Shown: positions 7,339-60,019 of the stretch, piece by piece
Position numbering within the stretch: the first letter of the stretch is position 1
Layout of the letters: each line of letters starts with the position of its first letter
Assembly (NCBI GenBank): GCA_046299555.1
Contig: JBKBHS010000001.1
Span: 1,056,009-1,120,008, forward strand
Origin: Bacteroidia bacterium
GTDB lineage: Bacteria; Bacteroidota; Bacteroidia; JACCXN01
DNA: 64,000 nucleotides
Reading direction: 5' to 3'
Translations under genes and position numbers: made by a program
Notes under the pieces: model-generated
The model's input: the letters and a program-made list of their open reading frames with translations, nothing else
Told to the model about the DNA's origin: nothing
Databases searched by the model: none

Positions 7339-9060
7339 TTATTTGTTTACAACAAATTTAAAAGATTTTTGAAAATTTGAATTTCTAACACTTGCAAAAT
7401 AAATTCCATTTTCAAGCGAGTATGCAATCTCAATTTTTTCTTCTTTGTTATCAGTATTGATGTTTTTCATTAATATTAATCTTCCTCTTAAATCATATAT
7501 TTCAATTGTTGTATTATATAGCGATTCATTGCTGCTTATATGCAAATAACTGTCATAGTAATATAAGCCTGATAAAGCATTGTCTTCAAAAGTAAGCGCT
7601 TTTATTTCAGAATAGGAATACGTGCCATCAAAATCAACTTGTTTTAAACGATAGTAATTAACTCCTTTTTTAGGTTCATAGTCTGTAATTAGATAATTTA
7701 TGGTTTGATTACTATTACCGGCTCCTTTTATTTTGCTTATCTCTTCAAATATTTCCCCGTCAATTGAACGTTCCACTATAAAATAATCATTATTGGTTTC
7801 AGTTTGAGTAGTCCAATAGATATGGCTTTTATTGATTTCTTTTTTTACATGAAAGTTGGTTAATTGGATAGGGAGGGGATTCGTTACACAATTTACAGTA
7901 ACATAATTTGTTGTATTGTATGCTCTACCTCTTGCAGAATTATAAGAATTGCCATTTAAATCATCTGTTTTATATCTGTAAGCATATACTCTATAACAAA
8001 AGGTACTGCTTGTATTTGCTCCAAAATCAGTATAAGAAATTGTACTAGTTCCCGGGTTATCGATATTAGCTAATACAGTACCTCCTCCTGTTATTGCATC
8101 ACCAATATTATATGTAGTTCCATCTTGAGGAGTACCAAATATTCCTGTACTACTTCTAACAATCATATAACCTTGAGTTGAGTCAGTATGTACGGGGTCG
8201 GTTGCGCTATTCCATGTAAATGTAAGAGCTACGGTAGGATATGTTGTGGCTGTTGTAGCTGTAACAGTTTGCGATGTAAAAACAGGTTCACGCAATTGAT
8301 TAATAAAGTTTGTATTGTCATTAGGAGCTGAACCACATGTATTGGGCAGTCCGAAAGTAATAGTAGTATTATTTTTTGATGTGTAAGCATTCCCGGTTCC
8401 TGGTCCATTATAATCAGAAATAATTCCACCTGGACAAACATATATTGCATCTCCACTACTTGCAATATTTGCATGATTAAGTTTTGGTGATGGTAAATTA
8501 ATCCAGTCTGTTCCTGGTGTTGATAAATGACCTAATGCATGAATATGTGTTCCACTAGCATTTCTAAGTTGAATGATTTCTCCTGAACCGGCAATATTTA
8601 ATGTGTTTCCAGCCCAAGTTGGGCTTGTACCAAATGCTCCTCCATTAAAATATGTAGTATTTTGTGCATTAATTTGAATGTATCCATCAGCTTTAGAAAT
8701 ATCTTCCGGGTTATTAACTCCAGACGAATTTATAATTCTATGCCAAATAATAATTATTGTACCAGCACGCATATTATTCCAAAATGCGATGTTGTTAAAT
8801 GTAATTGGAGTTTGCCAACTTGTTTGTGACGAATTATTATCTCTTAATGTCCACTCTCTCATATCTACATTGTCATCTATTACTAATAATTCTGTCCACT
8901 CATCTCTTGGATCTGCAGCATTAAAATAACTGTTTATAACTACACTTTGAGCATTTACAGTGTTAGTTAGTAGTATCATTATCAATAAAAATAATATTAC
9001 TGAAAATAATACTAACAATCGTTTTTGTAAATCCTGAATGGTTTTAATATTCTTAAACAT
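7339..9060 (-). CDS. Secreted T9SS type-A (Por_Secre_tail) cargo protein with lamin-tail-like N-domain and fibronectin-III-like middle region
   Basis: Signal peptide. The C-terminal ~80 aa (...YRLKQVDFDGTYSYSEIKAL...NGIYFASVRNSNFQKSFKFVVNK) fit the T9SS type-A sorting domain. The N-domain (VVINSYFNAADPRDEWTELLVIDDN...) resembles LTD domains. Confidence 0.6.
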   Translation of the reverse strand: MFKNIKTIQDLQKRLLVLFSVILFLLIMILLTNTVNAQSVVINSYFNAADPRDEWTELLVIDDNVDMREWTLRDNNSSQTSWQTPITFNNIAFWNNMRAGTIIIIWHRIINSSGVNNPEDISKADGYIQINAQNTTYFNGGAFGTSPTWAGNTLNIAGSGEIIQLRNASGTHIHALGHLSTPGTDWINLPSPKLNHANIASSGDAIYVCPGGIISDYNGPGTGNAYTSKNNTTITFGLPNTCGSAPNDNTNFINQLREPVFTSQTVTATTATTYPTVALTFTWNSATDPVHTDSTQGYMIVRSSTGIFGTPQDGTTYNIGDAITGGGTVLANIDNPGTSTISYTDFGANTSSTFCYRVYAYRYKTDDLNGNSYNSARGRAYNTTNYVTVNCVTNPLPIQLTNFHVKKEINKSHIYWTTQTETNNDYFIVERSIDGEIFEEISKIKGAGNSNQTINYLITDYEPKKGVNYYRLKQVDFDGTYSYSEIKALTFEDNALSGLYYYDSYLHISSNESLYNTTIEIYDLRGRLILMKNINTDNKEEKIEIAYSLENGIYFASVRNSNFQKSFKFVVNK

Positions 9061-9065
9061 AATTT

Positions 9066-11351
9066 TTAATGCATTAAGGTTATATGTCCGCTTTTAATGT
9101 CTTTAGTACCATTCATCCATTCTACATCCAATAAATAAAAATATACGCCATCGGTAACGCTTTCATTTTTATAGGTTCCATCCCAATTACCTTCTAATCC
9201 TTGCCATTGGTAAATTTCTTCCCCCCAGCGATTGTAAATTCTACAAACAATATCTTTTACTCTAACTCCTTTAATCTCAAAAACATCATTTACATTATCT
9301 CCATTAGGTGTAAATACATTGGGAATAAAAATCATTAAATAATCATGTACTTTAATAAATTCATAAATAGCTGTGTCTCTACATCCATAATTGTTTAAAG
9401 CAATGAGTGTTACGGTATATTCACCCGGTAAATTATAAATGGTTGATGGGTTTGTATCGGTAGAGGTATTATTGTTTCCGAAATCCCAATAATAATTATC
9501 GGCACTAATGCTATTATTAACAAAATTTACTTGAAGTGGAATTTGACCACTTGCCGGATTGGGCGTAAACGAAGCATCTATATTATTTACGTATATGGAA
9601 TAATAGGCAGTATCGCTACCACAGCTATTGCTTGCAATTAAATAATAATTTCCGGCAGCATTTACAGTATATGTATTTGAAATATTGATGCTTCCATTCC
9701 AAGTAAATGTGCCGTTCCCGATTGCAGTTAAAGTGGTTGATTCGCCCGGACATAAAGTATCTCGACCTATGTTTATTATATTAGCATTTGGAACAGAATC
9801 TTGAGTTATGGTAATACTTGCAGTATCTAAGCCACAATTATTAGAACCTATTACAGTGTAAGTTCCCGCTGTATTTATTGTAATACTATTAGAATTATTT
9901 CCAGTGTTCCAAGTATATGAATTAGCTCCGCTTGCGGTCAGGGTAGCTGTTTGATTGCCACAAATACTAGTTTGAGAAGCATTTATACTAACATTAGGTA
10001 ATGGATTTACTGTTATAGTTACAGGAGATGAAGTAGCACTACCACAATTATTAGAGGCAGTAACAGAATAATTACCTGCCGTACTTACATAAATTGATGT
10101 ACTTGTACTTCCATTTGACCATACATAACTATTCCCTCCTGACGCAGTTAGTAAAACCGAATCACCTTGGCATATAGTTGTATTACCCGTTATACTTATA
10201 TTTGCCGAAGGTAGAGAATCAATTATAATTTGTTGGCTAAGTGTATCAGAGTTACATGCATCACTAATGATAACCGTATATAACCCTGATGTTAAAACAT
10301 TGATAGATGCTGTTTGAGCACCCGTATTCCACGTATATGAAGTCCCACCACTTGCAGTTATGGTAGCAGTTTGGCCTTGACAAATAGTATCATTAGGAGT
10401 TACTGAAATAGTTGCATTAAGCGAATTTTGAATAGTTATTTGAAGTGTATCTTTTATACTATCGTTGCAGGTGTAGGCAGTAAAATATAAATTAAATGTT
10501 CCAACATCATTTTGTCCTATAACATATTGTACTGTATCATTATTATTTTGTAAAAATGTGCCATCTCCGCCACTCCATAAATAGGAACTTGCATTACCTC
10601 CGGTTAAGGTGCCAACCAATGTTAGAGTATCACCAACACAATAGGGTGCTGCTGTTGTATTAATTGTGTTTGCATTTAAAGGAACTACAGGAGCTTGACA
10701 ACCAAAGTTAACATACGTTGCATTCCCTGCCCAATCAAATATCACAGTAGAACCATCAGCATTGGTAGCACTTGGAATTCCTGATTGATTTACTAAAAGA
10801 GCTCTATCGTATGTAACTGCATCTGTACAACCTGCTCCAAAACTCATAGAAAGTGTTCTTAATCCGGTTCCGAAATTGGCAAAGTGCCCCGAAAAATTTC
10901 CCGGACATTGAAAAATTATATACATGGTATCTGCCAGGTTAGCAAATGAATTACCAACGGTACAGAAATCGGTTGATGTTATAAAAATAACATCAGCACC
11001 GGCTGGTAATATTCCCCCGGTAGGCTCAATTAAAAAACCACAACCTTGTATGGTACTGTTTAATGCAGCTGTATGTGCAGCTGTGGTAGCATTTTGGCAG
11101 ATTCCTTGCCAACTATTATTTGGCCAATTAACAGTTAAATTTGAAAGATTTAAAGGATTAGGACCTACTTTGAAACGAACCATTTCATTTTTTCCTTCAC
11201 AACTACAGGTAGGCGAATTTGCATTGGTACAACTACCTCCAGTAATACAGGCATCTACCAATATGCTTTCAATTTCAAAGCAAGTAGTTGGAATTTGTGC
11301 AAATAAGGCAAACTGAGTGCAAATGAATATCAGCGATAAAAATTTTTTCAT
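9066..11351 (-). CDS. Large surface adhesin with tandem SprB-like Ig repeats and gliding-motility/T9SS type-B C-terminal domain (CHU_C)
   Basis: Signal peptide. Five tandem ~72-aa repeats each carrying the C.G....L.ASGG.SY.W..G.....V..AG.Y.V...N.CG motif, then a PKD-like domain. The C-terminus FIPNVFTPNGDNVNDVFEI...NRWGEEIY...GVYFY matches the type-B sorting domain. Confidence 0.75.
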   Translation of the reverse strand: MKKFLSLIFICTQFALFAQIPTTCFEIESILVDACITGGSCTNANSPTCSCEGKNEMVRFKVGPNPLNLSNLTVNWPNNSWQGICQNATTAAHTAALNSTIQGCGFLIEPTGGILPAGADVIFITSTDFCTVGNSFANLADTMYIIFQCPGNFSGHFANFGTGLRTLSMSFGAGCTDAVTYDRALLVNQSGIPSATNADGSTVIFDWAGNATYVNFGCQAPVVPLNANTINTTAAPYCVGDTLTLVGTLTGGNASSYLWSGGDGTFLQNNNDTVQYVIGQNDVGTFNLYFTAYTCNDSIKDTLQITIQNSLNATISVTPNDTICQGQTATITASGGTSYTWNTGAQTASINVLTSGLYTVIISDACNSDTLSQQIIIDSLPSANISITGNTTICQGDSVLLTASGGNSYVWSNGSTSTSIYVSTAGNYSVTASNNCGSATSSPVTITVNPLPNVSINASQTSICGNQTATLTASGANSYTWNTGNNSNSITINTAGTYTVIGSNNCGLDTASITITQDSVPNANIINIGRDTLCPGESTTLTAIGNGTFTWNGSINISNTYTVNAAGNYYLIASNSCGSDTAYYSIYVNNIDASFTPNPASGQIPLQVNFVNNSISADNYYWDFGNNNTSTDTNPSTIYNLPGEYTVTLIALNNYGCRDTAIYEFIKVHDYLMIFIPNVFTPNGDNVNDVFEIKGVRVKDIVCRIYNRWGEEIYQWQGLEGNWDGTYKNESVTDGVYFYLLDVEWMNGTKDIKSGHITLMH

Positions 11352-15817: not shown

Positions 15818-15881
15818 TATCTGTTTAAAGGCAACCTATCTTAAAATTTCCGTTTATTTATTTAAAAATTAAATAAAAAAT

Positions 15882-15905
15882 GAGGGGCTGCCCCTTATTG
15901 TATTT
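15882..15905 (+). terminator. Possible rho-independent terminator after hemF
   Basis: GC-rich hairpin tgaggggc-tg-cccctta followed by a T-rich stretch. Confidence 0.35.
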
Positions 15906-15947: not shown

Positions 15948-18900
15948 ATGAGGGCATTAGTAAATAAAGTAATTATAACATTGCTTGTTAATTTTGCATT
16001 AATGTCAATATTGAATAATCGACTTAGTGCTCAAAATGGTTGTCCTAATGCCGATTTTTCTCAAAATAATTTTAATAATTGGCAAGGCTTTACTGGAAAC
16101 TACAATAATCCTGCACAAAATACAGGTATTGTTAATGGTCGTCATACCATTATGACGGGTCCCGGTACCGATCCTAACTCTTGTGGTGGATTACCATTAG
16201 TTCCTCCCGGTTCAACATTTTCTGCAAGATTAGGAAATGCAAATTATGGTGCAGAAGCAGAGCGTTTAAGATATACCTTAACTGTTGACCCTTCAAATGT
16301 ATTTTTTACATATAAATATGCGGTTGTATTTGAACAAGCAGGGCATTCACCGGCTGATCAGCCTAAATTTGATTTAAGAATTTTAAATAGCGCTAATCAA
16401 GTAATAAACCCAACTTGTGGCCAATATTCGGTTTATGAAGGTCAGCCCGGTTCTAATTATGTAAATTGTAGTTATTATCGTTATCAAAATTGGCGCACCG
16501 TTGGTTTAGATTTATCTCCTTACATGGGGCAAACAATTACCATTGAATTTACAACTTACGACTGTGCTTTAGGAGGACATTTCGGATATGCTTATGTGGC
16601 AGCTTCTTGTGGTCCATTAGAATTAGATGTGTCCTATTGCCCAGGATCAAATAGTGCAATATTAGAAGCTCCCGCAGGTTTTGCTACATATAATTGGTCG
16701 ACAGGTCAAACTGGTCAGACGATAACTATTAATAATCCAAATGTAGGTCAAAATGTAACCGTTACAATGACATCAGTTGTTAGCCCATCATGTCAAGTAA
16801 CGCTGAATACATTATTACAACCTACTACTGTAGATGCACATTTTAACTTTACAAGCGGATGTGTTTATGATACATTTAATTTTACGGATTCAACTATTGT
16901 AAATAATTCATCTGTTTCTACATGGTCTTGGAATTTTGGTGATCCGGGTTCAGGAGCAAATAATACTTCTAATTTGCAAAATCCTACACACGTATTTAGT
17001 ACAGCCGGAACTTTTAATGTAACTCTCATCGCATTGGTTCCTGCAGGCTGTGGTGATACTATTACCAGACAAGTTGTTGTGCAGCCACAACCTACTCCTG
17101 CATTTAATGCACCTGCTGTATGTTTTGGTGTGGCTGCTAATTTTACTGATCAATCTATTTCCAACACTTCTAACCCCATCAGTTCGTGGAATTGGGATTT
17201 TGGAGACGGAAACACATCAACCGCTCAAAACCCTTCAAATACATATACTTCTCCCGGTAATTATAATGTTACATTAATCGTTTCTAATGATTTAGGTTGC
17301 TTAGATACCTTGCAACAGCAAATAACTGTTTATAATGTTCCTCAAGCTGACTTTAATTTTACATCTCAATGCGATGGAACAGCAATTCCATTTACTGATG
17401 CCAGTACAACTCCGGCTCCAACAACCATTAATTCATGGCAATGGAATTTTGGAAACAATACCAGCACATCTCAAAACCCAACTAATGTTTTTCCAAGTAA
17501 TGGAACATTTAATGTACAACTTATTGTGGGGGCAAGTACCGGTTGCTACGATACAATAACCAAGCCTGTACGTGTTTACGCCAATCCATCGGCAGGTTTT
17601 TCTTATACGGATGTATGTTTGGGTAATGTGATGAGTTTAACGGATTCTTCGAGTATTGCAACCACAGATACGATAGTTTCATATTTATGGGCATTTGGCG
17701 ATGGTTCACCTACAGACAATAATCAAAATACAACACATCTTTATAATAATGCGGGAGCCTATACGGTAACGTTAATAGTAACGGGCACGGGAGGATGTTC
17801 AGATGTACAAACACATACGGTAAATGTATATGATGCCCCGCAGGCTAATTTTACAACGAGCAATGTATGTTTAAACACGGCAGCAAGTTTTACAAATACC
17901 ACTGTGAGTCCACAACATGGAGGCATGGGTAATTTTTCGTGGAATTTTGGAGATGGCTCGCCTTTGAATACAAATGACTGGAATGCTAATCATCAATATA
18001 CTACACATGGCACTTATCAGGTAACATTAATTACACAAAATTCAAATTTAGGCTGTGCTGATACCATTACATTACCAATTATAATTCATCCCATGCCTGT
18101 ACCAAACTTTACCTTTGTAAATCAATGTCAGGCAGATGCTTACACATTTACAAATACTTCAAGTATAGCGCAAGGAACGATAGCCTCCTATAATTGGAAT
18201 TTTGGGGATAATAGTACAAGCACTGCGAGTTCACCAAGTCATACCTATAGTTCATCGGGTAATTACAGTGTAACGTTAACAGCAACGAGTGATAGTGGAT
18301 GTGTAGCAAGTATAACACAACAAGTTACGGTATATCCGATGCCGAATGCAGATTTTACGGTTAATGAAGTATGCCATAATAGTCCCACAGAGTTTACAAG
18401 TACATCGAGTGTATTACCACCGGATAATATTACCACCTATCAATGGTTATTTGGAGATAATAATAGTTCAAGCCAACAAAATCCACAGCACACTTATAGC
18501 AGTGCAGGCTTATACAATGCTACCTTGATAGTAACCACGAATCACAATTGCAGCGATACGATAGTTTTACCTGTAACAGTAAATCCGAATCCGGTAGTAG
18601 ATTTTGTGGCCAATAAAATAAACGGATGCTCACCATTGTGTATAGATTTTACACAACAGGCAACAATATCATCAGGAGTTAACAGTCAATATATTTGGAA
18701 TTTTGGCGATGGAAATAATGGCAATGGAGCAGTAGTATCAAATTGTTATACCAATACAACTATCTACAATCCGATTAGCAGAGATATTACGTTAACTGTA
18801 GTATCGGATAAGGGTTGTAGCACAACGGTAACCAAGCCGAATTATATAACAGTGTATCCTTTGCCTGTAGCGGAGTTTACGCCTATACCGAAGGAGACGA

Positions 18901-19388
18901 GTATCTTAGATCCAATTATATATTTTGAAAATCAATCTTTAGGTTCGAATGCGTGGTTGTGGCATTTTGGAGAGGCGAATAATACGGGAGATACCATAAG
19001 TCAAAACCCATATCATACATACAAGGATACTGGGATTTATCAAGTTACATTAATATCCACGAATCAATGGGGATGTAAAGATACAGTAGTACATGATGTA
19101 GTAATAATAGGAGATTTTGCGTATTTTATACCGAATACCTTTACACCGAATGGGGATGGGGTAAATGATAGTTTTTATGGCAAGGGTTATGGTATAAAAG
19201 AGATCGTATTTCAGGTGTTTGACCGCTGGGGGTTGTTATTATTTGAAACAACCGATGTAAACGAAGGCTGGAAAGGTACTTATCAAGGAGAAAACTGTCA
19301 ACAAGATGTATATGTTTATCAAGTAAGGATTGTGGATATATTTGATAGAAAACATCAGTATAGAGGGCATGTTAATTTGATTCGATAA
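15948..19388 (+). CDS. Giant PKD-repeat surface protein A with gliding-motility/T9SS type-B C-terminal domain
   Basis: Signal peptide, a ~230-aa Cys-rich N-domain, nine PKD-like modules (each with a W.FGDG motif) and a C-terminus FIPNTFTPNGDGVNDSFYGKGYGIKE...DRWG...GVYVYQV matching the type-B sorting domain. Its 3' 1.85 kb is shared with the next gene. Confidence 0.8.
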   Translation: MRALVNKVIITLLVNFALMSILNNRLSAQNGCPNADFSQNNFNNWQGFTGNYNNPAQNTGIVNGRHTIMTGPGTDPNSCGGLPLVPPGSTFSARLGNANYGAEAERLRYTLTVDPSNVFFTYKYAVVFEQAGHSPADQPKFDLRILNSANQVINPTCGQYSVYEGQPGSNYVNCSYYRYQNWRTVGLDLSPYMGQTITIEFTTYDCALGGHFGYAYVAASCGPLELDVSYCPGSNSAILEAPAGFATYNWSTGQTGQTITINNPNVGQNVTVTMTSVVSPSCQVTLNTLLQPTTVDAHFNFTSGCVYDTFNFTDSTIVNNSSVSTWSWNFGDPGSGANNTSNLQNPTHVFSTAGTFNVTLIALVPAGCGDTITRQVVVQPQPTPAFNAPAVCFGVAANFTDQSISNTSNPISSWNWDFGDGNTSTAQNPSNTYTSPGNYNVTLIVSNDLGCLDTLQQQITVYNVPQADFNFTSQCDGTAIPFTDASTTPAPTTINSWQWNFGNNTSTSQNPTNVFPSNGTFNVQLIVGASTGCYDTITKPVRVYANPSAGFSYTDVCLGNVMSLTDSSSIATTDTIVSYLWAFGDGSPTDNNQNTTHLYNNAGAYTVTLIVTGTGGCSDVQTHTVNVYDAPQANFTTSNVCLNTAASFTNTTVSPQHGGMGNFSWNFGDGSPLNTNDWNANHQYTTHGTYQVTLITQNSNLGCADTITLPIIIHPMPVPNFTFVNQCQADAYTFTNTSSIAQGTIASYNWNFGDNSTSTASSPSHTYSSSGNYSVTLTATSDSGCVASITQQVTVYPMPNADFTVNEVCHNSPTEFTSTSSVLPPDNITTYQWLFGDNNSSSQQNPQHTYSSAGLYNATLIVTTNHNCSDTIVLPVTVNPNPVVDFVANKINGCSPLCIDFTQQATISSGVNSQYIWNFGDGNNGNGAVVSNCYTNTTIYNPISRDITLTVVSDKGCSTTVTKPNYITVYPLPVAEFTPIPKETSILDPIIYFENQSLGSNAWLWHFGEANNTGDTISQNPYHTYKDTGIYQVTLISTNQWGCKDTVVHDVVIIGDFAYFIPNTFTPNGDGVNDSFYGKGYGIKEIVFQVFDRWGLLLFETTDVNEGWKGTYQGENCQQDVYVYQVRIVDIFDRKHQYRGHVNLIR
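17543..19258 (+). repeat. Copy 1 of a 1716-bp segment that is 100% identical to 21678-23393
   Basis: Base-by-base comparison at a constant offset of 4135 bp was checked at several internal points. The ORF track also shows identical translations, including identical spurious antisense ORFs. Confidence 0.9.
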
Positions 19389-19401
19389 TTATACAATACC
19401 T

Positions 19402-22400
19402 ATGAAAGCATTAATAAAAATTATATTTATTTTATACATAATTCTACCATATACATCTGCTTACTCTCAAAATTCTACAAAAGGAAAAGATTTTTGGTTT
19501 GGTTTTCTATCTAATTTTTATGGCCCGGGTGGTTCACCCAATATGATTTATATTACTTCTGACAGAAATGTAAATGGAAATATATCTGTTCCCGGTATTG
19601 GAGTTAATATTCCGTTTAGTGTTACAGCCAATGGAGTTTTTTCTGTAGATATGGCAGCTCAATTGGTAGAACCTCCCCAAAATGACGGAATACATAATTT
19701 GGCCATACATATTACTGCATGTGATACTATTACGGTTTATGCTCAGAATGCAGGTTCAGCTTCAAATGATGCTACGATTATTTATCCAACCGAATCGCTT
19801 GGTGATGATTATAGAATTTTAAATATTAATGGATGGCCGGGAGATTGGGGGGATGAAGCTTTGATAGTAGCTACAGAAAATAATACACAAATAGAAATAA
19901 TCCCTTCAGTTGCAACTTCGGGTGGTTTGCCTGCCGGTGTTCCAACTGTTATCACATTAAATCAGGGACAAATGTATCAATTAAGTCATATTCCTGGTGG
20001 TAATAACTTATCCGGTACTATAATTAGAGGAGTAAATTCAGGAGTTTGTAAGCCATTTGCGGTTTTTTCAGGAAGTATATGTATAAATATAGGCGGATGC
20101 GTAGCTTGTGATCATCTGTATGAACAATTATTACCTGTATCAGCATGGGGGCTTGAATATATTTTAGTGCCCTTGAGCAATAAATCTCAAACTTATTATA
20201 GAATAATTGCATTAAATAATGGAACCAGCGTTTCCATAAACGGTGGAGCACCCATTAACTTAAATGCAGGTCAAGTTCATCAATTTTCAAATAATGTAGC
20301 CAGCTATGTACAATCCAATCAACCTATTCAGATAATGCAATATGCGCAAGGGAATGATTGTGACGGTGTTGGAGATCCTTTTCAAATTTTAATGTTTCCA
20401 ATTGAGCAAACTATAGATAATATAACTTTTAATGCATTTGTTACACCTTTAATTACTCAATATTGGGTAAATATTGTAGCTCAAACAAGTGCAGTTGCTA
20501 ATGTGGTATTAGATGGAAATAATATTGCAGCCCAGTTTAATCCCGTACCTTCAAATCCGGCATTTAGTTTTGCAAGAGTAAATATAACTCAAGGCAATCA
20601 TACACTTACATGTCCAGATGGTGTATTGGCTTATATTTACGGTTGGGGAGGTTATGAATCTTTTGGATATTGTGCCGGAGCCTCATTGCGCGATTTAACA
20701 AATGATTTTACTATAACATCGGTACCAACTTGTGCAGGAAATTCAATTACGTTCAGTGCAATAAGCGATCCAAATACAACTAATTATATATGGAATTTTG
20801 GAGATAATACAACTGCAAATGGTCTAACCGTTAGTCATACTTATTCTAATCCTGGTACCTATCAAGTTACTTTAACCAAAGTAAATAATATAGGATGTGA
20901 TAAAATCATACAGAAAAATGTATTAATAATGGATCCTCCTGTACAAATAGAACAAAATGATACTGTAATTTGTATCGGTGCAACGGTTAATTTGAATATT
21001 TTTTCAAATGATAGTATTCCAATTTATACACCAACAGGATGTGGAGATAGTTTATTAACATATATTTCATATCCTTATGATAGCATTGTATGGAGTACTG
21101 GACAAAATACATTTAATATTTCGATAACTCCAACTCAAGATACCACAATATATGTTTATGCATACGAAGGTAATTGTATAGGTGTTGACTCAATTCGAAT
21201 AGCCGTTAAAGACATACACGCACAATTCAGTGTTCAAGATAATTGTTTTGGGGTGAGTAGTCAATTTAATAATACTTCATTTATTAATAATCCTCATCAA
21301 ATAGATTCATATTTATGGAATTTTGGTGATGGAAATAATACAACGGCTCAAAATCCAACTCATACTTATGGTTCACCCGGAAATTATAATGTAACATTAA
21401 TTGTTTCCACTATCGAAGGATGTAGCGATAGTATTACACAAAGTATTAATGTTTATGATGCTCCTGTTGCAGATTTTGAAACAGATTCAGTTTGCTTAGG
21501 AGTAGCAATATTATTTAATAATCTTACAAGTAATCCTTTACATGGTAATATAGGAAACTACTGGTGGGATTTTGGAGACGGATCTCCAATTAATACTTCC
21601 AATTGGTCGCCTAATTATATGTATAATCAATCAGGCGTTTTTAATGTTTCTTTAGTTGTTCAAAATTCACAATTAAATTGCTACGATACAATAACCAAGC
21701 CTGTACGTGTTTACGCCAATCCATCGGCAGGTTTTTCTTATACGGATGTATGTTTGGGTAATGTGATGAGTTTAACGGATTCTTCGAGTATTGCAACCAC
21801 AGATACGATAGTTTCATATTTATGGGCATTTGGCGATGGTTCACCTACAGACAATAATCAAAATACAACACATCTTTATAATAATGCGGGAGCCTATACG
21901 GTAACGTTAATAGTAACGGGCACGGGAGGATGTTCAGATGTACAAACACATACGGTAAATGTATATGATGCCCCGCAGGCTAATTTTACAACGAGCAATG
22001 TATGTTTAAACACGGCAGCAAGTTTTACAAATACCACTGTGAGTCCACAACATGGAGGCATGGGTAATTTTTCGTGGAATTTTGGAGATGGCTCGCCTTT
22101 GAATACAAATGACTGGAATGCTAATCATCAATATACTACACATGGCACTTATCAGGTAACATTAATTACACAAAATTCAAATTTAGGCTGTGCTGATACC
22201 ATTACATTACCAATTATAATTCATCCCATGCCTGTACCAAACTTTACCTTTGTAAATCAATGTCAGGCAGATGCTTACACATTTACAAATACTTCAAGTA
22301 TAGCGCAAGGAACGATAGCCTCCTATAATTGGAATTTTGGGGATAATAGTACAAGCACTGCGAGTTCACCAAGTCATACCTATAGTTCATCGGGTAATTA

Positions 22401-23523
22401 CAGTGTAACGTTAACAGCAACGAGTGATAGTGGATGTGTAGCAAGTATAACACAACAAGTTACGGTATATCCGATGCCGAATGCAGATTTTACGGTTAAT
22501 GAAGTATGCCATAATAGTCCCACAGAGTTTACAAGTACATCGAGTGTATTACCACCGGATAATATTACCACCTATCAATGGTTATTTGGAGATAATAATA
22601 GTTCAAGCCAACAAAATCCACAGCACACTTATAGCAGTGCAGGCTTATACAATGCTACCTTGATAGTAACCACGAATCACAATTGCAGCGATACGATAGT
22701 TTTACCTGTAACAGTAAATCCGAATCCGGTAGTAGATTTTGTGGCCAATAAAATAAACGGATGCTCACCATTGTGTATAGATTTTACACAACAGGCAACA
22801 ATATCATCAGGAGTTAACAGTCAATATATTTGGAATTTTGGCGATGGAAATAATGGCAATGGAGCAGTAGTATCAAATTGTTATACCAATACAACTATCT
22901 ACAATCCGATTAGCAGAGATATTACGTTAACTGTAGTATCGGATAAGGGTTGTAGCACAACGGTAACCAAGCCGAATTATATAACAGTGTATCCTTTGCC
23001 TGTAGCGGAGTTTACGCCTATACCGAAGGAGACGAGTATCTTAGATCCAATTATATATTTTGAAAATCAATCTTTAGGTTCGAATGCGTGGTTGTGGCAT
23101 TTTGGAGAGGCGAATAATACGGGAGATACCATAAGTCAAAACCCATATCATACATACAAGGATACTGGGATTTATCAAGTTACATTAATATCCACGAATC
23201 AATGGGGATGTAAAGATACAGTAGTACATGATGTAGTAATAATAGGAGATTTTGCGTATTTTATACCGAATACCTTTACACCGAATGGGGATGGGGTAAA
23301 TGATAGTTTTTATGGCAAGGGTTATGGTATAAAAGAGATCGTATTTCAGGTGTTTGACCGCTGGGGGTTGTTATTATTTGAAACAACCGATGTGAACGAA
23401 GGCTGGAAAGGCACCTATCAAGGAGAAAACTGTCAGCAGGATGTGTATGTTTATCAGGTAAGAATTGTAGATATAAATAATAAAAAACATCAGTTTAGAG
23501 GGCATGTTAATTTGATTCGATAA
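19402..23523 (+). CDS. Giant PKD-repeat surface protein B with IgGFc-binding-like N-domain and type-B T9SS C-terminal domain
   Basis: Signal peptide. The ~430-aa N-domain begins KGKDFWFGFLSNF, which resembles the IgGFc-binding N-terminal domain family. PKD modules follow. The 3' ~620 codons are identical to gene A except the last ~40. Confidence 0.8.
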   Translation: MKALIKIIFILYIILPYTSAYSQNSTKGKDFWFGFLSNFYGPGGSPNMIYITSDRNVNGNISVPGIGVNIPFSVTANGVFSVDMAAQLVEPPQNDGIHNLAIHITACDTITVYAQNAGSASNDATIIYPTESLGDDYRILNINGWPGDWGDEALIVATENNTQIEIIPSVATSGGLPAGVPTVITLNQGQMYQLSHIPGGNNLSGTIIRGVNSGVCKPFAVFSGSICINIGGCVACDHLYEQLLPVSAWGLEYILVPLSNKSQTYYRIIALNNGTSVSINGGAPINLNAGQVHQFSNNVASYVQSNQPIQIMQYAQGNDCDGVGDPFQILMFPIEQTIDNITFNAFVTPLITQYWVNIVAQTSAVANVVLDGNNIAAQFNPVPSNPAFSFARVNITQGNHTLTCPDGVLAYIYGWGGYESFGYCAGASLRDLTNDFTITSVPTCAGNSITFSAISDPNTTNYIWNFGDNTTANGLTVSHTYSNPGTYQVTLTKVNNIGCDKIIQKNVLIMDPPVQIEQNDTVICIGATVNLNIFSNDSIPIYTPTGCGDSLLTYISYPYDSIVWSTGQNTFNISITPTQDTTIYVYAYEGNCIGVDSIRIAVKDIHAQFSVQDNCFGVSSQFNNTSFINNPHQIDSYLWNFGDGNNTTAQNPTHTYGSPGNYNVTLIVSTIEGCSDSITQSINVYDAPVADFETDSVCLGVAILFNNLTSNPLHGNIGNYWWDFGDGSPINTSNWSPNYMYNQSGVFNVSLVVQNSQLNCYDTITKPVRVYANPSAGFSYTDVCLGNVMSLTDSSSIATTDTIVSYLWAFGDGSPTDNNQNTTHLYNNAGAYTVTLIVTGTGGCSDVQTHTVNVYDAPQANFTTSNVCLNTAASFTNTTVSPQHGGMGNFSWNFGDGSPLNTNDWNANHQYTTHGTYQVTLITQNSNLGCADTITLPIIIHPMPVPNFTFVNQCQADAYTFTNTSSIAQGTIASYNWNFGDNSTSTASSPSHTYSSSGNYSVTLTATSDSGCVASITQQVTVYPMPNADFTVNEVCHNSPTEFTSTSSVLPPDNITTYQWLFGDNNSSSQQNPQHTYSSAGLYNATLIVTTNHNCSDTIVLPVTVNPNPVVDFVANKINGCSPLCIDFTQQATISSGVNSQYIWNFGDGNNGNGAVVSNCYTNTTIYNPISRDITLTVVSDKGCSTTVTKPNYITVYPLPVAEFTPIPKETSILDPIIYFENQSLGSNAWLWHFGEANNTGDTISQNPYHTYKDTGIYQVTLISTNQWGCKDTVVHDVVIIGDFAYFIPNTFTPNGDGVNDSFYGKGYGIKEIVFQVFDRWGLLLFETTDVNEGWKGTYQGENCQQDVYVYQVRIVDINNKKHQFRGHVNLIR
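21678..23393 (+). repeat. Copy 2 of the 1716-bp identical segment
   Basis: See copy 1. Identity starts inside a PKD module at ...CYDTITKPVRVYANPSAGF and ends 130 bp before the stop codon. Confidence 0.9.
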
Positions 23524-23668
23524 AATTTTTTATCCATAAAAGCATTCTGCTAAATAATTTCATCGAATCAAATTAAATAATAGTCGAATTGGCAACCAAA
23601 TGTTTATTTTAACGTTAATTAATATAATCTTTTAAATTACTTTCGTAAATTATATGTAAAACATTGTA

Positions 23669-26600
23669 GTGATGCCAATTAACAGAATTTTATTTCTTTT
23701 TATAATTTGTATTTTAAATCCAAGTTTTCTATCAGCTCAAAATACATGTCCTAATTCCGATTTTTCACAAGGCAATTTTAATAATTGGAATGGTTTTACA
23801 GGTAGTTATACTAATCCTGCTCAAACTCCCGGTATAGTTCCGGGCAGGCACACTATAATGAATGCTTCTGCATTAGATCCAAATACATGCAATGGCTTAA
23901 ATGTATTACCTCCCGGATCTTCATTTTCGGCACGTTTGGGTAATGCAGGTACAAATGCACAAGGAGAGCAATTAAGATATACTTTAGCAGTTACCAACCA
24001 AAACGCTTTATTTGTATATAAATACGCAGTTGTATTAGAAAATCCATCCGGTCATGCCCCTAATGAACAACCTGAATTTAGAATGAGAATTTTAAACCAG
24101 TCAGGACAACAAATTGGAGGTAATTGCGGGCAATATACGGTTTATGGAGGTCAACCGGGGCAAAATTTTCAAGTTTGTGGAGGAGTTACTTGGTTACCCT
24201 GGACAATAGTTTCTGTAAACTTATCGCCCTATATCGGGCAAAATGTTACAATAGAATTTACAACAAAAGACTGTAGCTTAGGTGCACATTTTGGATACGC
24301 ATACGTTGCTGCCGAATGTATGCCTTTAATGATTGATATTGAATATTGCCCGGGTGATAATTCTGTAGTATTAACTGCTCCTCCTGGCTTTCAATCTTAC
24401 CAATGGAGTCCGGGGGGAGCTACAACACAATCTATAACCATAAATAATCCGGTTATTGGTTCTACCTATTCTTGTACATTAACTTCGTTTAGTAATCAAG
24501 GTTCTTGTCAGGTTACCTTAAGTGTTCAGATAGTACCAACAGTAGTTACGGCAGGTTTTTCTTTTTCACCGGCTTGTCAGGGAGTGCCAATACAATTTAC
24601 AGATACTTCAACAGTAGCAAATGGAACACTAGGTTCCTGGCTTTGGGATTTTGGAGATGGAAACACTTCAACAGCACAAAACCCAACACATACCTATTCG
24701 AATAGTGGCACTTATAATGTAACCCTTATTGCATTTTCTACAGCGCAATGTAGCGATACAATTACTCAGCAAATTAATATTTTCCCAATTCCTGATGCTC
24801 AATTTACTTATGCTCCTGCTTGTCCCGGAGATGCTGTTCAATTTACTAATAACTCTACCGGTAATACAACTTTAACCTACAATTGGAATTTTGGAGATCC
24901 TGCTTCCGGTGCAAATAATACTTCAACTGATACAAATCCAAGTCATATATTTAATACAGCCGGAACGTATAATGTAACTTTGGTTGCAACTAATACCAAT
25001 GGATGTGTTGATACTCTTGTTCAACAAGTCCAAGTTAATTCAGGTGCTACGCCAAATTTTACATTTACAAGTCAATGTCAGGGAACAGCAATAAACTTTA
25101 ATAATACAAGTACTATAGCTCCTCCTAATACCATTACAAATTACAGTTGGAATTTTGGAGGAGGTAATACCGCAACCGGAGCTACAGCAAGTCATGTATT
25201 TAATACTCCCGGAATGAATAATGTTACATTAACGGTAACAACATCTTTAGGATGTAGCGATTCTATTACCATACCGGTGAGGGTATATGCTAATCCTGTT
25301 GCTAATTTTACACATCAAGATGTGTGTTTTGGTAATGTAATGAGTTTTACTAATACCTCTACAGTTACTAATACAGATACTATTACAAGTTATTTATGGG
25401 CATTTGGAAATGGTAATACATCTACAGCAACCAACCCAACTCAAAACTATGCAGCACCAGGCAGTTATAATGTTACTTTGATTGCCACTAGTACCGGTGG
25501 ATGTTCAAATGTTGTTACTCATCAGGTTAATGTATATGATTTGCCAGTTGCCGACTTTATATTTGATAATAAATGTGAAAATATTCAAGCTACATTTACA
25601 AACATTACACAACAGCCACAATCCGGTAATGTTACGTCATGGTCATGGAATTATGGAGATGGTTCACCATTAGATGTTACCAATTGGAATGGAGTACATA
25701 CTTATACAACAACAGGTACATATACTGTAACTTTAATTACTAATAATACTATCGGCTGTTCAGATACTGTAAGTCATCAAATATTAGTACATCCAACTCC
25801 TGTTGCAGATTTTAGTTTTACCAATAAATGTTTAGTAGATTCAGTTGTGTTTACAGATCTTTCAACCGGTGGAATCGCATCATATAACTGGAATTTTGGA
25901 GATGGAAATAATAGTACGCAATCTAATCCAACCCATATCTATTCAAATGCTGGATTTTATACCGTTACATTATCAGTAACAAGCGATAGCGGTTGTACAC
26001 ATTTTACAACTAAGCAAGTTGAAATATACCCAATGCCAAATGCTGATTTTTCTGCATTAAACGTTTGTCAGTATGATAGTATGAATTTTACTTCGTTGGC
26101 AACGGTTCAACCTCCAAGTAATATTGCAAATTGGAATTGGGATTTTGGAAATACAATAGGAACATCTACTCAAACCAATCCAGCTTATTTCTATGGTGCA
26201 CCTGGAACTTACAATGTAACCTTAATAGTAAATACCAATAATAATTGTAAAGATACAGTTACAAAAACAGTTGTAGTAAACCCAATGCCGAATGTAAATT
26301 TTGAAGCGGATTTATTAAGTTCCTGTTCTCCATTATGTGTTAATTTAACAGACTTATCATCAGTAGTTTCAGGTAACAATACTTCTTTTGTGTGGAATTT
26401 TGGTGATGGAACAACAGGAAACGGAGTAACTACTAACCATTGCTATACCAACGATGGTGCTACTGAAAATGTATATAGAACAATAACGCTAACTGTTACT
26501 ACCGATAGTGGTTGTGTTGGCATGCACACCAAAAACAATTATTTAACAATTTATCCTACCCCGATTGCTGAATTTTCATCATCTCCACAACCCACTACCA

Positions 26601-27079
26601 TTAGAAATCCAATTATATATTTTAATAATGAAACAATTGGAGGATATTCTTATGTGTGGAATTTTGGTGATAATACAGCAACTTCTACTGAAACTAGTCC
26701 AACTCATACTTATGTAATGGTTGGTCAGTATGATGTTACATTAATATCTACCAATCAATGGGGATGTTCTGATACAATTATTCATACAGTATATATTGAT
26801 GATGATTTTGCGTTTTATATACCAAATGCCTTTACTCCAAATGGTGATGGAATTAATGATATATTTTCAGGCAAAGGCTATGGTATTAAAGAGTATGTAA
26901 TGTATGTTTTTGATCGGTGGGGTGAAAAACTTTATGAAACCACTGACTTAAATAAAGGGTGGGATGGGACCTTTAAAGGAGCGGAAGCTCAACAAGATGT
27001 ATATGTTTATCGTGTAGATATTATAGATATTCACGGAGAAAAACACAAATATAAAGGACACTTTACATTAGTAAGATAA
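23669..27079 (+). CDS. Giant PKD-repeat surface protein C, a diverged paralog of A, with type-B T9SS C-terminal domain
   Basis: Same architecture as A. The N-domain CPNSDFSQGNFNNWNGFTGSYTNPAQTPGIVPGRHTIM...FGYAYVAAEC is colinear with A's but only partly identical. It has ~9 PKD modules and a C-terminus FYIPNAFTPNGDGINDIFSGKGYGIKE...DRWGEKLYE. Confidence 0.8.
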   Translation: MMPINRILFLFIICILNPSFLSAQNTCPNSDFSQGNFNNWNGFTGSYTNPAQTPGIVPGRHTIMNASALDPNTCNGLNVLPPGSSFSARLGNAGTNAQGEQLRYTLAVTNQNALFVYKYAVVLENPSGHAPNEQPEFRMRILNQSGQQIGGNCGQYTVYGGQPGQNFQVCGGVTWLPWTIVSVNLSPYIGQNVTIEFTTKDCSLGAHFGYAYVAAECMPLMIDIEYCPGDNSVVLTAPPGFQSYQWSPGGATTQSITINNPVIGSTYSCTLTSFSNQGSCQVTLSVQIVPTVVTAGFSFSPACQGVPIQFTDTSTVANGTLGSWLWDFGDGNTSTAQNPTHTYSNSGTYNVTLIAFSTAQCSDTITQQINIFPIPDAQFTYAPACPGDAVQFTNNSTGNTTLTYNWNFGDPASGANNTSTDTNPSHIFNTAGTYNVTLVATNTNGCVDTLVQQVQVNSGATPNFTFTSQCQGTAINFNNTSTIAPPNTITNYSWNFGGGNTATGATASHVFNTPGMNNVTLTVTTSLGCSDSITIPVRVYANPVANFTHQDVCFGNVMSFTNTSTVTNTDTITSYLWAFGNGNTSTATNPTQNYAAPGSYNVTLIATSTGGCSNVVTHQVNVYDLPVADFIFDNKCENIQATFTNITQQPQSGNVTSWSWNYGDGSPLDVTNWNGVHTYTTTGTYTVTLITNNTIGCSDTVSHQILVHPTPVADFSFTNKCLVDSVVFTDLSTGGIASYNWNFGDGNNSTQSNPTHIYSNAGFYTVTLSVTSDSGCTHFTTKQVEIYPMPNADFSALNVCQYDSMNFTSLATVQPPSNIANWNWDFGNTIGTSTQTNPAYFYGAPGTYNVTLIVNTNNNCKDTVTKTVVVNPMPNVNFEADLLSSCSPLCVNLTDLSSVVSGNNTSFVWNFGDGTTGNGVTTNHCYTNDGATENVYRTITLTVTTDSGCVGMHTKNNYLTIYPTPIAEFSSSPQPTTIRNPIIYFNNETIGGYSYVWNFGDNTATSTETSPTHTYVMVGQYDVTLISTNQWGCSDTIIHTVYIDDDFAFYIPNAFTPNGDGINDIFSGKGYGIKEYVMYVFDRWGEKLYETTDLNKGWDGTFKGAEAQQDVYVYRVDIIDIHGEKHKYKGHFTLVR

Positions 27080-27085
27080 TAAATA

Positions 27086-27115
27086 AAAATCCCCCGAAAC
27101 CGGGGGATTTTTTTA
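27086..27115. terminator. Bidirectional rho-independent terminator between convergent genes
   Basis: aaaaatcccccg-aaac-cgggggattttttt perfect 8-bp GC-rich stem flanked by A-run and T-run. Confidence 0.6.
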
Positions 27116-41614: not shown

Positions 41615-43279
41615 TTAATAAACTGTAAGTTTTTGAGTGTTGGTTGATTTTCCATTTACTTGAAGATTTACAAAATATATTCCTTTTGAAAGATTAGGTA
41701 TATCAACTTTGTGACTTATAAACCCTGAATAACGATTTCCTGCATCTATTTTAGCAACTTCTCGACCACTCATATCATATATTAGAATTTGTACATTTCC
41801 TGATTTTTCTAAAGCGTATTCTAAATTAATCCAGCCATTTGCCGGGTTAGGATAAACATTAAATAAAACAGAATTTTCAATGTAAGTGTTTAGTTTTTGT
41901 TCGGGTGCATCTGATGCTAAAACTGCACAATAATCTTGTAGCTTTAAAAGCATTTTGTGAATATTTAATCTGCCTTTTGTTTTAACTAAATTTTGTAATG
42001 ACGCAATAGTATCAACTCCTTGAAACATAAAATCTCGAAAAATAAGTGCAAAAGAGTCAGGGTATGCTTTGTACTTTTCTAATAATGCAGGGCAAGCAGC
42101 AGCATACATTAAAGCAATAGCCCCTGCAACATGTGGTGTAGCCATAGAAGTTCCTGAGGATGTACTATAACCGCTTGAATTGTTACATGATAAAATATTT
42201 GTTCCTGGTGCGCCCAAATCAATGGTATTTATTCCATAACCGGCAAATTGCGTTTTTACATCGGTATTGGTTGTATTGGTAACTGAAATCATGTACTCGC
42301 TTGGGCATGCGGTAGGTATATCACCTTGTGTATCTACATTGGTATTTTGATTGGCAGTAGCACCTGCATTTAAAATGCCAATTCTGCCTAATGAGTCGTA
42401 TATTCCACACCATAGTGGATAATTGGATGGTTGTCCAAAATCTACACCAAACGATGCATTAGTAGAAACAATAAAAGCTCCTTTTTGCCCATTAGTTGTA
42501 TCGTACATCATACGATTGGTATATACATAATCGTATGCTCTAACAACTACAGCTTCGCTATTCGATGAGCCTCTTATTGCCATTACCTTTACTTTCCAGT
42601 TTACTCCTGTTACGCCTAAATTATTATTCCCAATTGCACCAACAGTACCTGAAACGTGTGTGCCGTGATAATCGCTTGCTATGGTTCCATTTTGTCCAAC
42701 TGCATTCCAACCGTTTACATCATCAATATATCCATTACCGTCATCATCTATACCGTTACCGGCAATTTCATTGTAATTTTTCCAAAAATCCAAATCAGGA
42801 TGATTTAATTGAAAACCTCCGTCAATAACTGCAACTACAATGGTATCTCCGGCTGCTGTTAATCCACCTGTGGTTATATCCCAAGCTAATGTAGCATCAA
42901 TATCTGCTCCGGCAGTTCCTCCATTTTGACCGGTATTTCGCAAGCCCCATAATGAACTAAACTGTGTATCATTTGGTATAGAGGCTCTTTGTTCTATGGT
43001 ATGATTGTATTGTGCTACCAATATTTTTGAATCGGCTTTTAATTTATTTAATAAATCTTCAGCATTTATTTGTGGATGAATATTTATTTGATAAATACTC
43101 CAATTTTGCGATAAAAGTTCATAACTAATTATTTCAGGATAATTTTTAAAAATATAGGCAGGGCTGTAACTTGCATCAATTTTTACTAACAACTCACCTG
43201 GAATAATATTTTTTTCAGGTTGTGAAAAAACCGTAAAAGTAATAATTGATATAATAACTGTAAGTAGAGCTTTTTTCAT
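41615..43279 (-). CDS. S8 (subtilisin) family serine peptidase with T9SS type-A C-terminal sorting domain
   Basis: Catalytic triad blocks VAVIDGG, HGTHVSGTVGA and GTSMATPHVAGAIALM. C-terminus ...NPANGWINLEY...IYDMSGREV...GIYFVNLQVNGKSTNTQKLTVY. Confidence 0.8.
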   Translation of the reverse strand: MKKALLTVIISIITFTVFSQPEKNIIPGELLVKIDASYSPAYIFKNYPEIISYELLSQNWSIYQINIHPQINAEDLLNKLKADSKILVAQYNHTIEQRASIPNDTQFSSLWGLRNTGQNGGTAGADIDATLAWDITTGGLTAAGDTIVVAVIDGGFQLNHPDLDFWKNYNEIAGNGIDDDGNGYIDDVNGWNAVGQNGTIASDYHGTHVSGTVGAIGNNNLGVTGVNWKVKVMAIRGSSNSEAVVVRAYDYVYTNRMMYDTTNGQKGAFIVSTNASFGVDFGQPSNYPLWCGIYDSLGRIGILNAGATANQNTNVDTQGDIPTACPSEYMISVTNTTNTDVKTQFAGYGINTIDLGAPGTNILSCNNSSGYSTSSGTSMATPHVAGAIALMYAAACPALLEKYKAYPDSFALIFRDFMFQGVDTIASLQNLVKTKGRLNIHKMLLKLQDYCAVLASDAPEQKLNTYIENSVLFNVYPNPANGWINLEYALEKSGNVQILIYDMSGREVAKIDAGNRYSGFISHKVDIPNLSKGIYFVNLQVNGKSTNTQKLTVY

Positions 43280-59791: not shown

Positions 59792-59847
59792 TTATTAGTT
59801 TAAAGTCATTAACCATTAGTTAATTAATTTGTTGATTTGATGATTTT

Positions 59848-59895
59848 TTGAATTGTTGAATTGTTGAATTGTTGAATTGTTGAATTGTTGAATTT
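59848..59895 (+). repeat. Tandem octamer array (TTGAATTG) x5 perfect + 1 imperfect
   Basis: Read directly: ttgaattg repeated head-to-tail, preceded by degenerate units (ttgatttg, atgatttt). Confidence 0.9.
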
Positions 59896-59912
59896 CAGAT
59901 TTGAAAATTTAT

Positions 59913-60019
59913 AACTCAATAACACAATAACTCAATAACTCAATAACACAATAACTCAATAACTCAGTTACCAATAACTCAATAATTCAATAATTCAATA
60001 ATTCAATAACTCAATAACC
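59913..60019 (+). repeat. Tandem octamer array (AACTCAAT / AACACAAT / AATTCAAT) x13, whose complement carries the same TTGARTT core as the upstream array
   Basis: Read directly. The reverse complement of the units is ATTGAGTT/ATTGAATT, so the two arrays present the core TTGA(A/G)TT in opposite orientations. Confidence 0.9.

Follow-up and report, generated by a model that had tools for sequence, protein, structure and literature searches.

Type-B cargo proteins of type IX secretion systems (T9SS) are abundant in environmental Bacteroidota, and a function is known for few of them. What is the role of such proteins when three of them stand in tandem with one kind of stalk and sorting domain and two unrelated N-terminal heads, and how is such an array reshuffled? 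The question is raised by genes A, B and C in a stretch of 64,000 nucleotides from a Bacteroidia bacterium (GenBank assembly GCA_046299555.1, contig JBKBHS010000001.1, positions 1,056,009 to 1,120,008 of the forward strand), which is called the window in the following. As a kind of locus, a tandem array of modular type-B surface proteins of the T9SS, such as A, B and C, is ordinary. We regard it as fairly probable that they are surface adhesins with exchangeable ligand-binding tips that were diversified by gene conversion and unequal crossing-over. Beyond routine annotation are the unnamed head of A and C with its fold resembling carbohydrate-binding modules (CBMs), the gain and loss of a gene by conversion, and a phage branch of the head family. 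The locus is a clean and well-delimited case of how type-B cargo is assembled and reshuffled.

The three genes are all on the + strand, with spacers of 13 bp between A and B and of 145 bp between B and C. They were delimited by their open reading frames (ORFs) and translations and analysed with Pfam and NCBIfam.

15948..19388, + strand, gene A, 1146 aa, ATG start
19402..23523, + strand, gene B, 1373 aa, ATG start
23669..27079, + strand, gene C, 1136 aa from a GTG start

The ORFs are exactly those given in the original prediction, which was made by a model from the sequence; with 1.1 to 1.4 thousand residues, the products are large rather than giant, as they had been called. When gene C is started from the ATG at 23672, one codon later, the product has 1135 aa, as in public gene calls. 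Gene A encodes a signal peptide, a jelly-roll head, an immunoglobulin (Ig)-like module, nine PKD domains and a type-B T9SS C-terminal domain. Gene C has the same architecture and is 52.6% identical to A over the full length. In gene B the signal peptide is followed by a PF17517 head, PKD1, an Ig-like insert, PKD2 to PKD9 and the type-B C-terminal domain.

The N-termini of all three proteins show a basic n-region, a hydrophobic core and a cleavage context of ...SA|Q or ...YS|Q and were judged by eye from the translations to be Sec signal peptides, as had been predicted. A glutamine at position +1 is typical for exported Bacteroidota proteins (the Bacteroidetes "Q-rule"). The PKD-like modules, of which nine or so had been predicted, correspond to nine stretches of PKD_4 per protein (E 2e-121 to 3e-127), so that A, B and C belong to the PKD-domain repeat proteins (PF18911 / PF00801); each protein also has nine W.FG(D/N/E/G) motifs. 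At the extreme C-terminus, PF13585 (CHU_C) scored 50.3, 51.6 and 55.2 bits in A, B and C against a cut-off of 27, and the NCBIfam type-B sorting domain TIGR04131 scored 57.4, 58.6 and 66.1 bits against a cut-off of 35. The type-B domain claimed for all three proteins thus lies above both curated cut-offs, and together with the signal peptides it places A, B and C among the T9SS type-B cargo. The sorting domains, delimited by PF13585 and TIGR04131, are:

19128..19388, + strand, type-B T9SS C-terminal sorting domain of A, aa 1061-1146
23263..23523, + strand, type-B C-terminal sorting domain of B, aa 1288-1373
26819..27079, + strand, type-B C-terminal sorting domain of C, aa 1051-1136

The heads of A and C are colinear and 59% identical over about 265 residues, counted from the glutamine at the mature N-terminus. 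All motifs quoted in the original prediction are present, but the region, which had been taken for one Cys-rich domain of about 230 aa, falls into two parts, a jelly-roll domain with some 198 aa and an Ig-like domain with some 65 aa. It contains 8 to 9 cysteines with up to four likely disulphides and is therefore only mildly Cys-rich.

16032..16625, + strand, beta-jelly-roll head of A, aa 29-226, from the mature N-terminal Gln (AlphaFold2, Foldseek, alignments)
16626..16826, + strand, Ig-like module of A, aa 227-293 (AlphaFold2 strands 199-261, profile positions 202-265, ig.hmm)
23738..24340, + strand, jelly-roll head of C, aa 24 to about 224, paralogue of the A head (head.hmm, E 2.6e-84)
24341..24550, + strand, Ig-like module of C (ig.hmm, E 1e-27)

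In the family of these heads the residues N6, F9, W17, G22, H38, G68, V99, H105, P111, W154, C178, H183, G185, Y186 and Y188 (mature numbering) are invariant, and R37, D47, E77, Q110 and D177 are nearly so. No named family was found, in line with the prediction. The isolated jelly-roll, the Ig-like module and two homologues had no match in Pfam and NCBIfam at E<=10. The A head alone had no match in a sequence search of the Protein Data Bank (PDB), and the family profile gave nothing significant there. The best hit of the profile (E 0.19 over 28 residues) pairs the N-terminal strand "PN.DFE.G...W" of the family with 8xmz, the only segment that aligned to a solved CBM. By sequence, the A/C head is not a member of any described CBM family in Pfam, NCBIfam or the PDB profile search.

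An AlphaFold2 model of the head and the Ig-like module, computed from an alignment of 40 sequences, was all-beta with a predicted local distance difference test (pLDDT) score of 94.7 and a predicted template modelling (pTM) score of 0.89. Foldseek against the PDB matched it to CBM61 (TM-score to the target 0.51), to 8xmz, a porphyran-binding CBM from a T9SS protein (0.53), and to CBM11, CBM27, CBM28 and CBM4, all at about 10% identity. The Foldseek probability was 1.0 for CBM61, CBM27, CBM28 and 8xmz and 0.92-0.98 for CBM11. Further matches were a MAM-Ig module, the K1 adhesin domain of gingipain Kgp, accessory domains of enzymes of glycoside hydrolase family 85 (GH85) and distal domains of Klebsiella phage tailspikes; a viral structure library returned CBMs of the CenC-like kind and tips of tail fibres. 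With TM-scores to the target of up to 0.53, the head is thus predicted to have a beta-jelly-roll fold of the CBM type. The proposal that it is a binding or lectin module fits these matches to CBMs and adhesin jelly-rolls, short of proof.

The head family is large. Searched against 1.84 billion proteins (representatives of clusters at 50% identity), the profile gave 15,628 hits at E<=1e-3 and 3,761 at E<=1e-30. Part of the strongest matches is to the Ig-like portion alone, which occurs in 20-78 copies in giant proteins of other organisms. Where the whole profile matched, the head nearly always started 15-45 residues from the N-terminus, and in most of the best matches it occupies the N-terminus, the presumed distal tip. 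With one genome scanned per species, at least 598 head loci were found, and the 80 loci examined were almost all from records labelled Bacteroidota. The best matches (57-58%) were in Fluviicola and in unclassified Bacteroidota or Flavobacteriales metagenome-assembled genomes (MAGs). The head was found joined to a type-B, a type-A or no sorting domain, and two head genes stood side by side in 10 of 79 loci from other genomes. The A/C head is widespread, usually N-terminal and confidently predicted in its fold; neither Pfam nor NCBIfam has a model for it, and it could be entered there as a new family.

The head of B is unrelated to that of A and C, as had been proposed, with the qualification that it belongs to a named family.

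19468..20691, + strand, head of B, aa 23 to about 430, all-beta, IgGFc_binding PF17517 (Pfam, AlphaFold2)

Residues 123-414 cover the full PF17517 profile (positions 1-297 of 297) with 251 bits against a gathering score of 25.6 (E 2e-74). Its best homologues are 44% identical over the full length, and in homologues the head is also paired with CHU_C, PKD or Por_Secre_tail domains. The AlphaFold2 model had a pLDDT of 92.9 and a pTM of 0.92. No PDB sequence was matched, and Foldseek gave no convincing structure, with TM-scores <=0.15.

The stalks between the heads and the sorting domains were compared module by module.

16827..19127, + strand, stalk of A, nine PKD domains, bounds approximate (PKD_4, E 2.4e-121; W.FGD motifs)
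20728..23262, + strand, stalk of B, PKD1, Ig-like insert of about 85 aa and PKD2-9 (Pfam, motifs, module comparison)
24551..26818, + strand, stalk of C, nine PKD domains (Pfam, module comparison)

Modules 3 to 9 of A pair position by position with modules 3 to 9 of C at 45-58% identity, against 25-40% off the diagonal. Because the modules correspond in order and the overall identity is 52.6%, A and C are old whole-gene paralogues. Modules 4 to 9 of B are identical to those of A, and modules 1 to 3 of B are distinct. This identity extends to the DNA, where A and B share a repeat of 1,716 bases without a single difference, which was absent from the original prediction.

17543..19258, + strand, repeat copy 1, 1,716 bp, starting at the end of PKD3 and reaching the middle of the C-terminal domain of A
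21678..23393, + strand, repeat copy 2 in B, at an offset of 4,135 bp

The repeat has sharp edges. Its left end coincides with the conserved "GC.DT" end of PKD3 and its right end lies in the middle of the sorting domain, where the 102 nt directly 3' of the repeat contain 14 differences between A and B. It is the only long 31-mer repeat in the window; other repeated 31-mers occur only in octamer arrays near 59850-59940.

Look-ups of exact gene products located C and hemF, the gene upstream of A, on contigs of public sequencing runs. The contig SRR24079483_6485 (109.8 kb) corresponds to the window minus exactly 4,135 bp, with 4 other single-nucleotide differences in about 25 kb. Its gene order is hemF, a gene of 1146 aa with the head of A, the shared stalk and a 3' end of the B type, a 148-bp spacer and C. 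A near-clonal strain thus carries a two-gene allele without B. In five other samples the contigs end at 17572, which is the left repeat edge plus 30, or begin at 23364, with the first 3' difference between A and B lying 30 nt further on. Such break points would be expected for an assembly graph with k=31 in which both A and B are present. Both genes are probably present in these five samples, because the breaks need two left and two right contexts for the repeat.

The identity of A and B and the three-gene structure could alternatively be an assembly artefact, a duplicated or chimeric join at a locus that truly has two genes. The only long public contig that spans the site has two genes, neither the A nor the B product as encoded in the window had an exact match among the public gene-product look-ups or in the homology searches, and an exact search for the A/B junction in the metagenomes of the Joint Genome Institute (JGI) gave no match. 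However, the independent assemblies of five samples break exactly at both repeat boundaries, the reading frame of B is intact and encodes a head and three PKD modules that are its own, and 14 sites distinguish the 3' end of the A type from that of the B type. We therefore consider an artefact very improbable. The most economical history would be that the three-gene array came first and that a gene conversion of very recent date then made the tails of A and B uniform (1,716 bp, zero differences). Unequal crossing-over inside the repeat tract would have deleted B in one lineage, leaving a gene with the A head and the B 3' end. By this route near-clonal strains gain or lose an entire gene at a homogenised repeat.

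The contigs L089 and L091, from the two further samples SRR32943635 and SRR32943640, share a stop at window position 16072. This position lies within the A head, and the window has no repeat there. The stop may mark the start of additional allelic divergence of the A head in mixed populations. Invertible-promoter phase variation found no support, since the flanks hold only AT-rich hairpins and no recombinase was among the ORFs scanned.

The array was compared with the corresponding site in Fluviicola (Crocinitomicaceae), the closest sequenced relatives, whose MAGs have a GuaA that is 73-76% identical to that of the window. By this identity the organism belongs to the Flavobacteriales, close to the Crocinitomicaceae. 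In five Fluviicola MAGs three genes for type-B cargo (932, 935 and 1228 aa), all in one direction, come after the genes guaA-LysM-hemF. An A/C-type head is found only in the middle gene, with four PKD domains, and the two outer genes have different N-terminal regions. The right flank contains proline dehydrogenase and dehydroquinate (DHQ) synthase in place of DUF7935 and dnaN. By neighbour joining, the nearest relative of the C head is the hemF-linked head gene of Fluviicola sp. SJ411. Because Fluviicola also has three type-B genes after hemF and their heads differ, the hemF-linked site is conserved as the place of an array of surface proteins that itself varies. In the Fluviicola arrays (L002, L003 and L004, 6970-16950; L058, 4856-14815) the N-terminal region of gene 1 is about 680 aa long and that of gene 3 contains PKD, P_proprotein-like and Ig_7 pieces.

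Variation in copy number and modules across strains and relatives, which the original prediction had proposed to look for, was thus seen in the two-gene allele and the Fluviicola arrays. Its description of the locus as modular and rapidly evolving held for the 1,716-bp conversion tract, the strain without B and the Fluviicola arrays, but not for the A/C head, which is the best-conserved part.

How the proteins would reach the surface can be sketched from their domains. A Sec signal peptide would direct each protein to the periplasm, with a glutamine at the mature N-terminus, and the type-B C-terminal domain would route it through the T9SS. PorP/SprF-like outer-membrane proteins collect type-B cargo and hold it on the surface, and "orphan" type-B substrates can use a distantly encoded shuttle (PMC9143113, PMC12618676). 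By analogy with SprB-SprF and PG1035-PorP, such a shuttle would also hold A, B and C on the cell. They would be orphan substrates because the window contains no PorP/SprF gene, and the shuttle would be encoded elsewhere. The sorting domain would then be proximal to the membrane, and the N-terminal head would be carried at a long distance from the cell by the nine PKD domains and the one extra Ig-like module. The heads of A, B and C would most likely be ligand-binding tips. Since a fold of binding modules is predicted at the distal N-terminal position, an adhesin or lectin role of the heads is reasonably likely. We infer secretion, surface anchoring, adhesin function and ligand from these features.

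Several points weigh against the proposal of exchangeable adhesin tips. The likeness in fold is generic, with a TM-score to the query of about 0.3 and about 10% identity, and no carbohydrate-binding residues could be mapped. In the 64-kb window no PorP/SprF-like gene was found among the ORFs of >=150 aa scanned directly, where an adjacent shuttle gene is typical but not obligatory; five further ORFs were checked for PorP_SprF only via precomputed Pfam marks on matching public contigs. The heads of A and C are more conserved (59%) than the stalk modules (45-58%) and are not fast-evolving, and the presence of B in other samples was deduced from contig break points and not seen directly. The last point is the set of invariant histidines H38, H105 and H183, which together with the conserved Asp, Glu and Gln residues could mark a metal or catalytic site.

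With these residues, among them the near-invariant R37, D47, E77, Q110 and D177, the A/C head might instead be an enzyme or a metal-dependent catalytic domain on a stalk, for example one that modifies or degrades glycans, rather than a lectin or adhesin that binds passively. There are also catalytic families with a beta-jelly-roll, and hydrolases are numerous among T9SS cargo proteins. However, no catalytic family was matched at E<=10 in Pfam or NCBIfam, the head contains no known catalytic motif such as HExxH, and the best matches by fold are either non-catalytic modules or domains accessory to enzymes, so we consider a catalytic head unlikely. The proteins could also be mobile gliding-motility adhesins of the SprB/RemA kind, with heads that grip different substrata. 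The type-B C-terminal domain is as in SprB, the stalk is repetitive and Ig-like, and the predicted fold of the A/C head is lectin-like; RemA has a lectin domain. Mobile type-B cargo has also been proposed to be held by PorP-like proteins alone (PMC9143113). Nevertheless, sprB and sprF are linked, whereas no sprF-like gene is adjacent to the array or in the window, and neither gld nor spr genes occur in the window. SprB is five times as long as A, B and C, and most type-B cargo proteins are not known as motility adhesins. A role in gliding is therefore similarly improbable, and surface adhesins with exchangeable tips are the reading that we prefer for A, B and C.

The family of A/C heads also extends to phages. 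Stand-alone homologues of 294 aa and 455 aa were found to be phage genes. In a crAss-like contig (L092, European Nucleotide Archive (ENA)) the homologue lies between genes for lysozyme and Peptidase_M15_3, upstream of the Ring and Muzzle genes, and in crAss-like contigs the head cassette stands inside the lysis gene cluster. A second phage homologue was in a 129-kb contig of small ORFs without assigned function. IMG/VR contributed 48 further viral contigs with an A/C-type head (L096-L143), at 41-50% identity to A; the phage set comprised L092, L093-L095 and these 48 contigs. Neighbouring genes in four viral contigs (L104, L101, L141, L098) match phage families, among them the large subunit of topoisomerase II in L104 (E 7e-182) and, within the four, an RNA ligase/tail-fibre attachment catalyst, dCMP deaminase and others. 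By neighbour joining the viral heads formed one almost pure clade (28 of 29 unique sequences). A tblastn search of GenBank phages with the phage-type homologue gave no match.

The sorting domain is distributed differently in the two groups. It is present in 70 of 89 bacterial head proteins and missing from 40 of 50 viral ones, and 39 of those 40 end in TN, HD, HN or QN. For 28 of the 40, a small separate protein with a signal peptide and CHU_C is encoded within 2.5 kb, and a third secreted phage protein of about 186 aa ends in the same terminal motif. Stop-codon read-through was rejected for the phage proteins that lack a sorting domain, since the genes next to them are read in other frames and do not keep a fixed order. 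Some viral contigs encode the full architecture of A and C with a signal peptide, head, 6-10 PKD domains and a type-B domain in 877-1347 aa (L101/L102, 9935-13978; L104/L105/L142/L143, 9947-12580), one of them with 1347 aa, ten PKD domains and CHU_C. For crAss-like contigs, ORFs with a T9SS sorting domain were noted earlier (de Jonge et al. 2019, PMC6949934). No published account of an A/C-type head or of the terminal motif in phages was found.

The phage clade with its conserved C-terminal end suggests a possible link between phage infection and the T9SS. A wider proposal would be that the A/C head is a large unnamed family common to Bacteroidota T9SS cargo and a long-standing monophyletic phage lineage, and that the phages hijack the host T9SS so that infected cells display a binding module, possibly in trans if it docks on the small sorting-domain protein. 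The bacterial heads would then see the same class of ligand, perhaps a Bacteroidota surface glycan. We put this forward as a speculation to which we assign a low probability.

The array is embedded in chromosomal housekeeping genes. Upstream of it are guaA, a gene for a LysM/periplasmic-binding protein and hemF, and downstream are DUF7935, which is convergent with C, dnaN, a P-type ATPase and an M50 peptidase. Candidate transcription signals lie at both edges and between B and C.

15879..15899, + strand, terminator-like hairpin after hemF, at the upstream edge of the array
27085..27112, no strand assigned, hairpin with a perfect 12-bp stem and runs of T on either strand, lying between C and DUF7935 (convergent), at the downstream edge
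23507..23576, no strand assigned, inverted repeat of 26 nt, 92% complementary, with an 18-nt loop, spanning the stop codon of B

The inverted repeat at the B stop codon may be a terminator or attenuator between B and C. It has no counterpart after A, and in the two-gene allele it follows the recombinant A gene. The 13-bp spacer without a terminator suggests that A and B are co-transcribed. A scan for sigma-70 promoters, which does not model Bacteroidota promoters, found 66 sites where 61 were expected, and the whole window had no Rfam match at the gathering thresholds.

Other T9SS cargo genes are present in the window and indicate that the organism has a T9SS; they imply nothing on the secretion of A, B and C. 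At 7339-9060 (- strand) is a gene of 573 aa with a type-A Por_Secre_tail, and at 9066-11351 (- strand) one of 761 aa with Ig-like repeats, one PKD and a type-B CHU_C, so that a span of 20 kb, counting A, B and C, contains five genes for T9SS cargo. At 41615-43279 (- strand) a subtilase (Peptidase_S8) is encoded that carries a T9SS sorting tail of type A. A TPR protein (49945-50997, + strand) adjoins a protein with a PD40 beta-propeller and OmpA-C (51008-53074, + strand). This is the domain set described for the T9SS component PorE, split over two ORFs, and no PorP-like gene is adjacent. The octamer tandem arrays stand back to back, (TTGTTGAA)x8 at 59829-59894 and (ATAACTCA)x13.6 at 59911-60018, between a phospholipase-D-like gene and a class-III aminotransferase gene.

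Among known systems, the phage proteins are closest to those of de Jonge et al. (2019, PMC6949934), as both are encoded on phage contigs with T9SS sorting-domain proteins of unassigned role. The earlier report concerns BACON repeats in gut phages, whereas the proteins described here carry an A/C-type head, mostly without a sorting domain and with a terminal T/H-N/D end. The head of B matches the full model of PF17517, the IgGFc_binding domain known as an N-terminal domain of the FCGBP/zonadhesin kind in animals and from many Bacteroidota proteins. The family is named yet without a defined bacterial function.

The A/C head has the same predicted fold as the beta-jelly-roll CBMs (CenC-like CBM4/9/22, CBM11, CBM27, CBM28, CBM61 and 8xmz), shares the N-terminal strand motif PN.DFE.G...W with 8xmz in a weak alignment (E 0.19), and is likewise an accessory domain on secreted Bacteroidota proteins. 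Unlike the hallmarks of CBMs are its three invariant histidines, its up to four likely disulphides and the fused Ig-like module. Its sequence similarity to CBMs is not significant (best PDB E 0.19), and carbohydrate binding is a prediction. The "cleaved adhesin" K domains of the gingipains and haemagglutinins of Porphyromonas gingivalis (PDB 4itc) are also jelly-roll adhesin domains on T9SS cargo and were matched by Foldseek, but they belong to type-A cargo, are about 12% identical with a low TM-score, and have another position in the protein.

As a whole, with their predicted secretion and anchoring, A, B and C are comparable to the SprB-type T9SS type-B cargo. They are much smaller than SprB-type proteins, have other head families and occur as three tandem paralogues, two of which (A and B) have a converted stalk. 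With the orphan type-B substrates (PMC9143113, PMC12618676) they have in common that no shuttle gene is linked to them. With the SprB-type cargo they share the Sec signal peptide, the repetitive Ig-like body, the TIGR04131/CHU_C domain and the expected dependence on a PorP/SprF-like protein.

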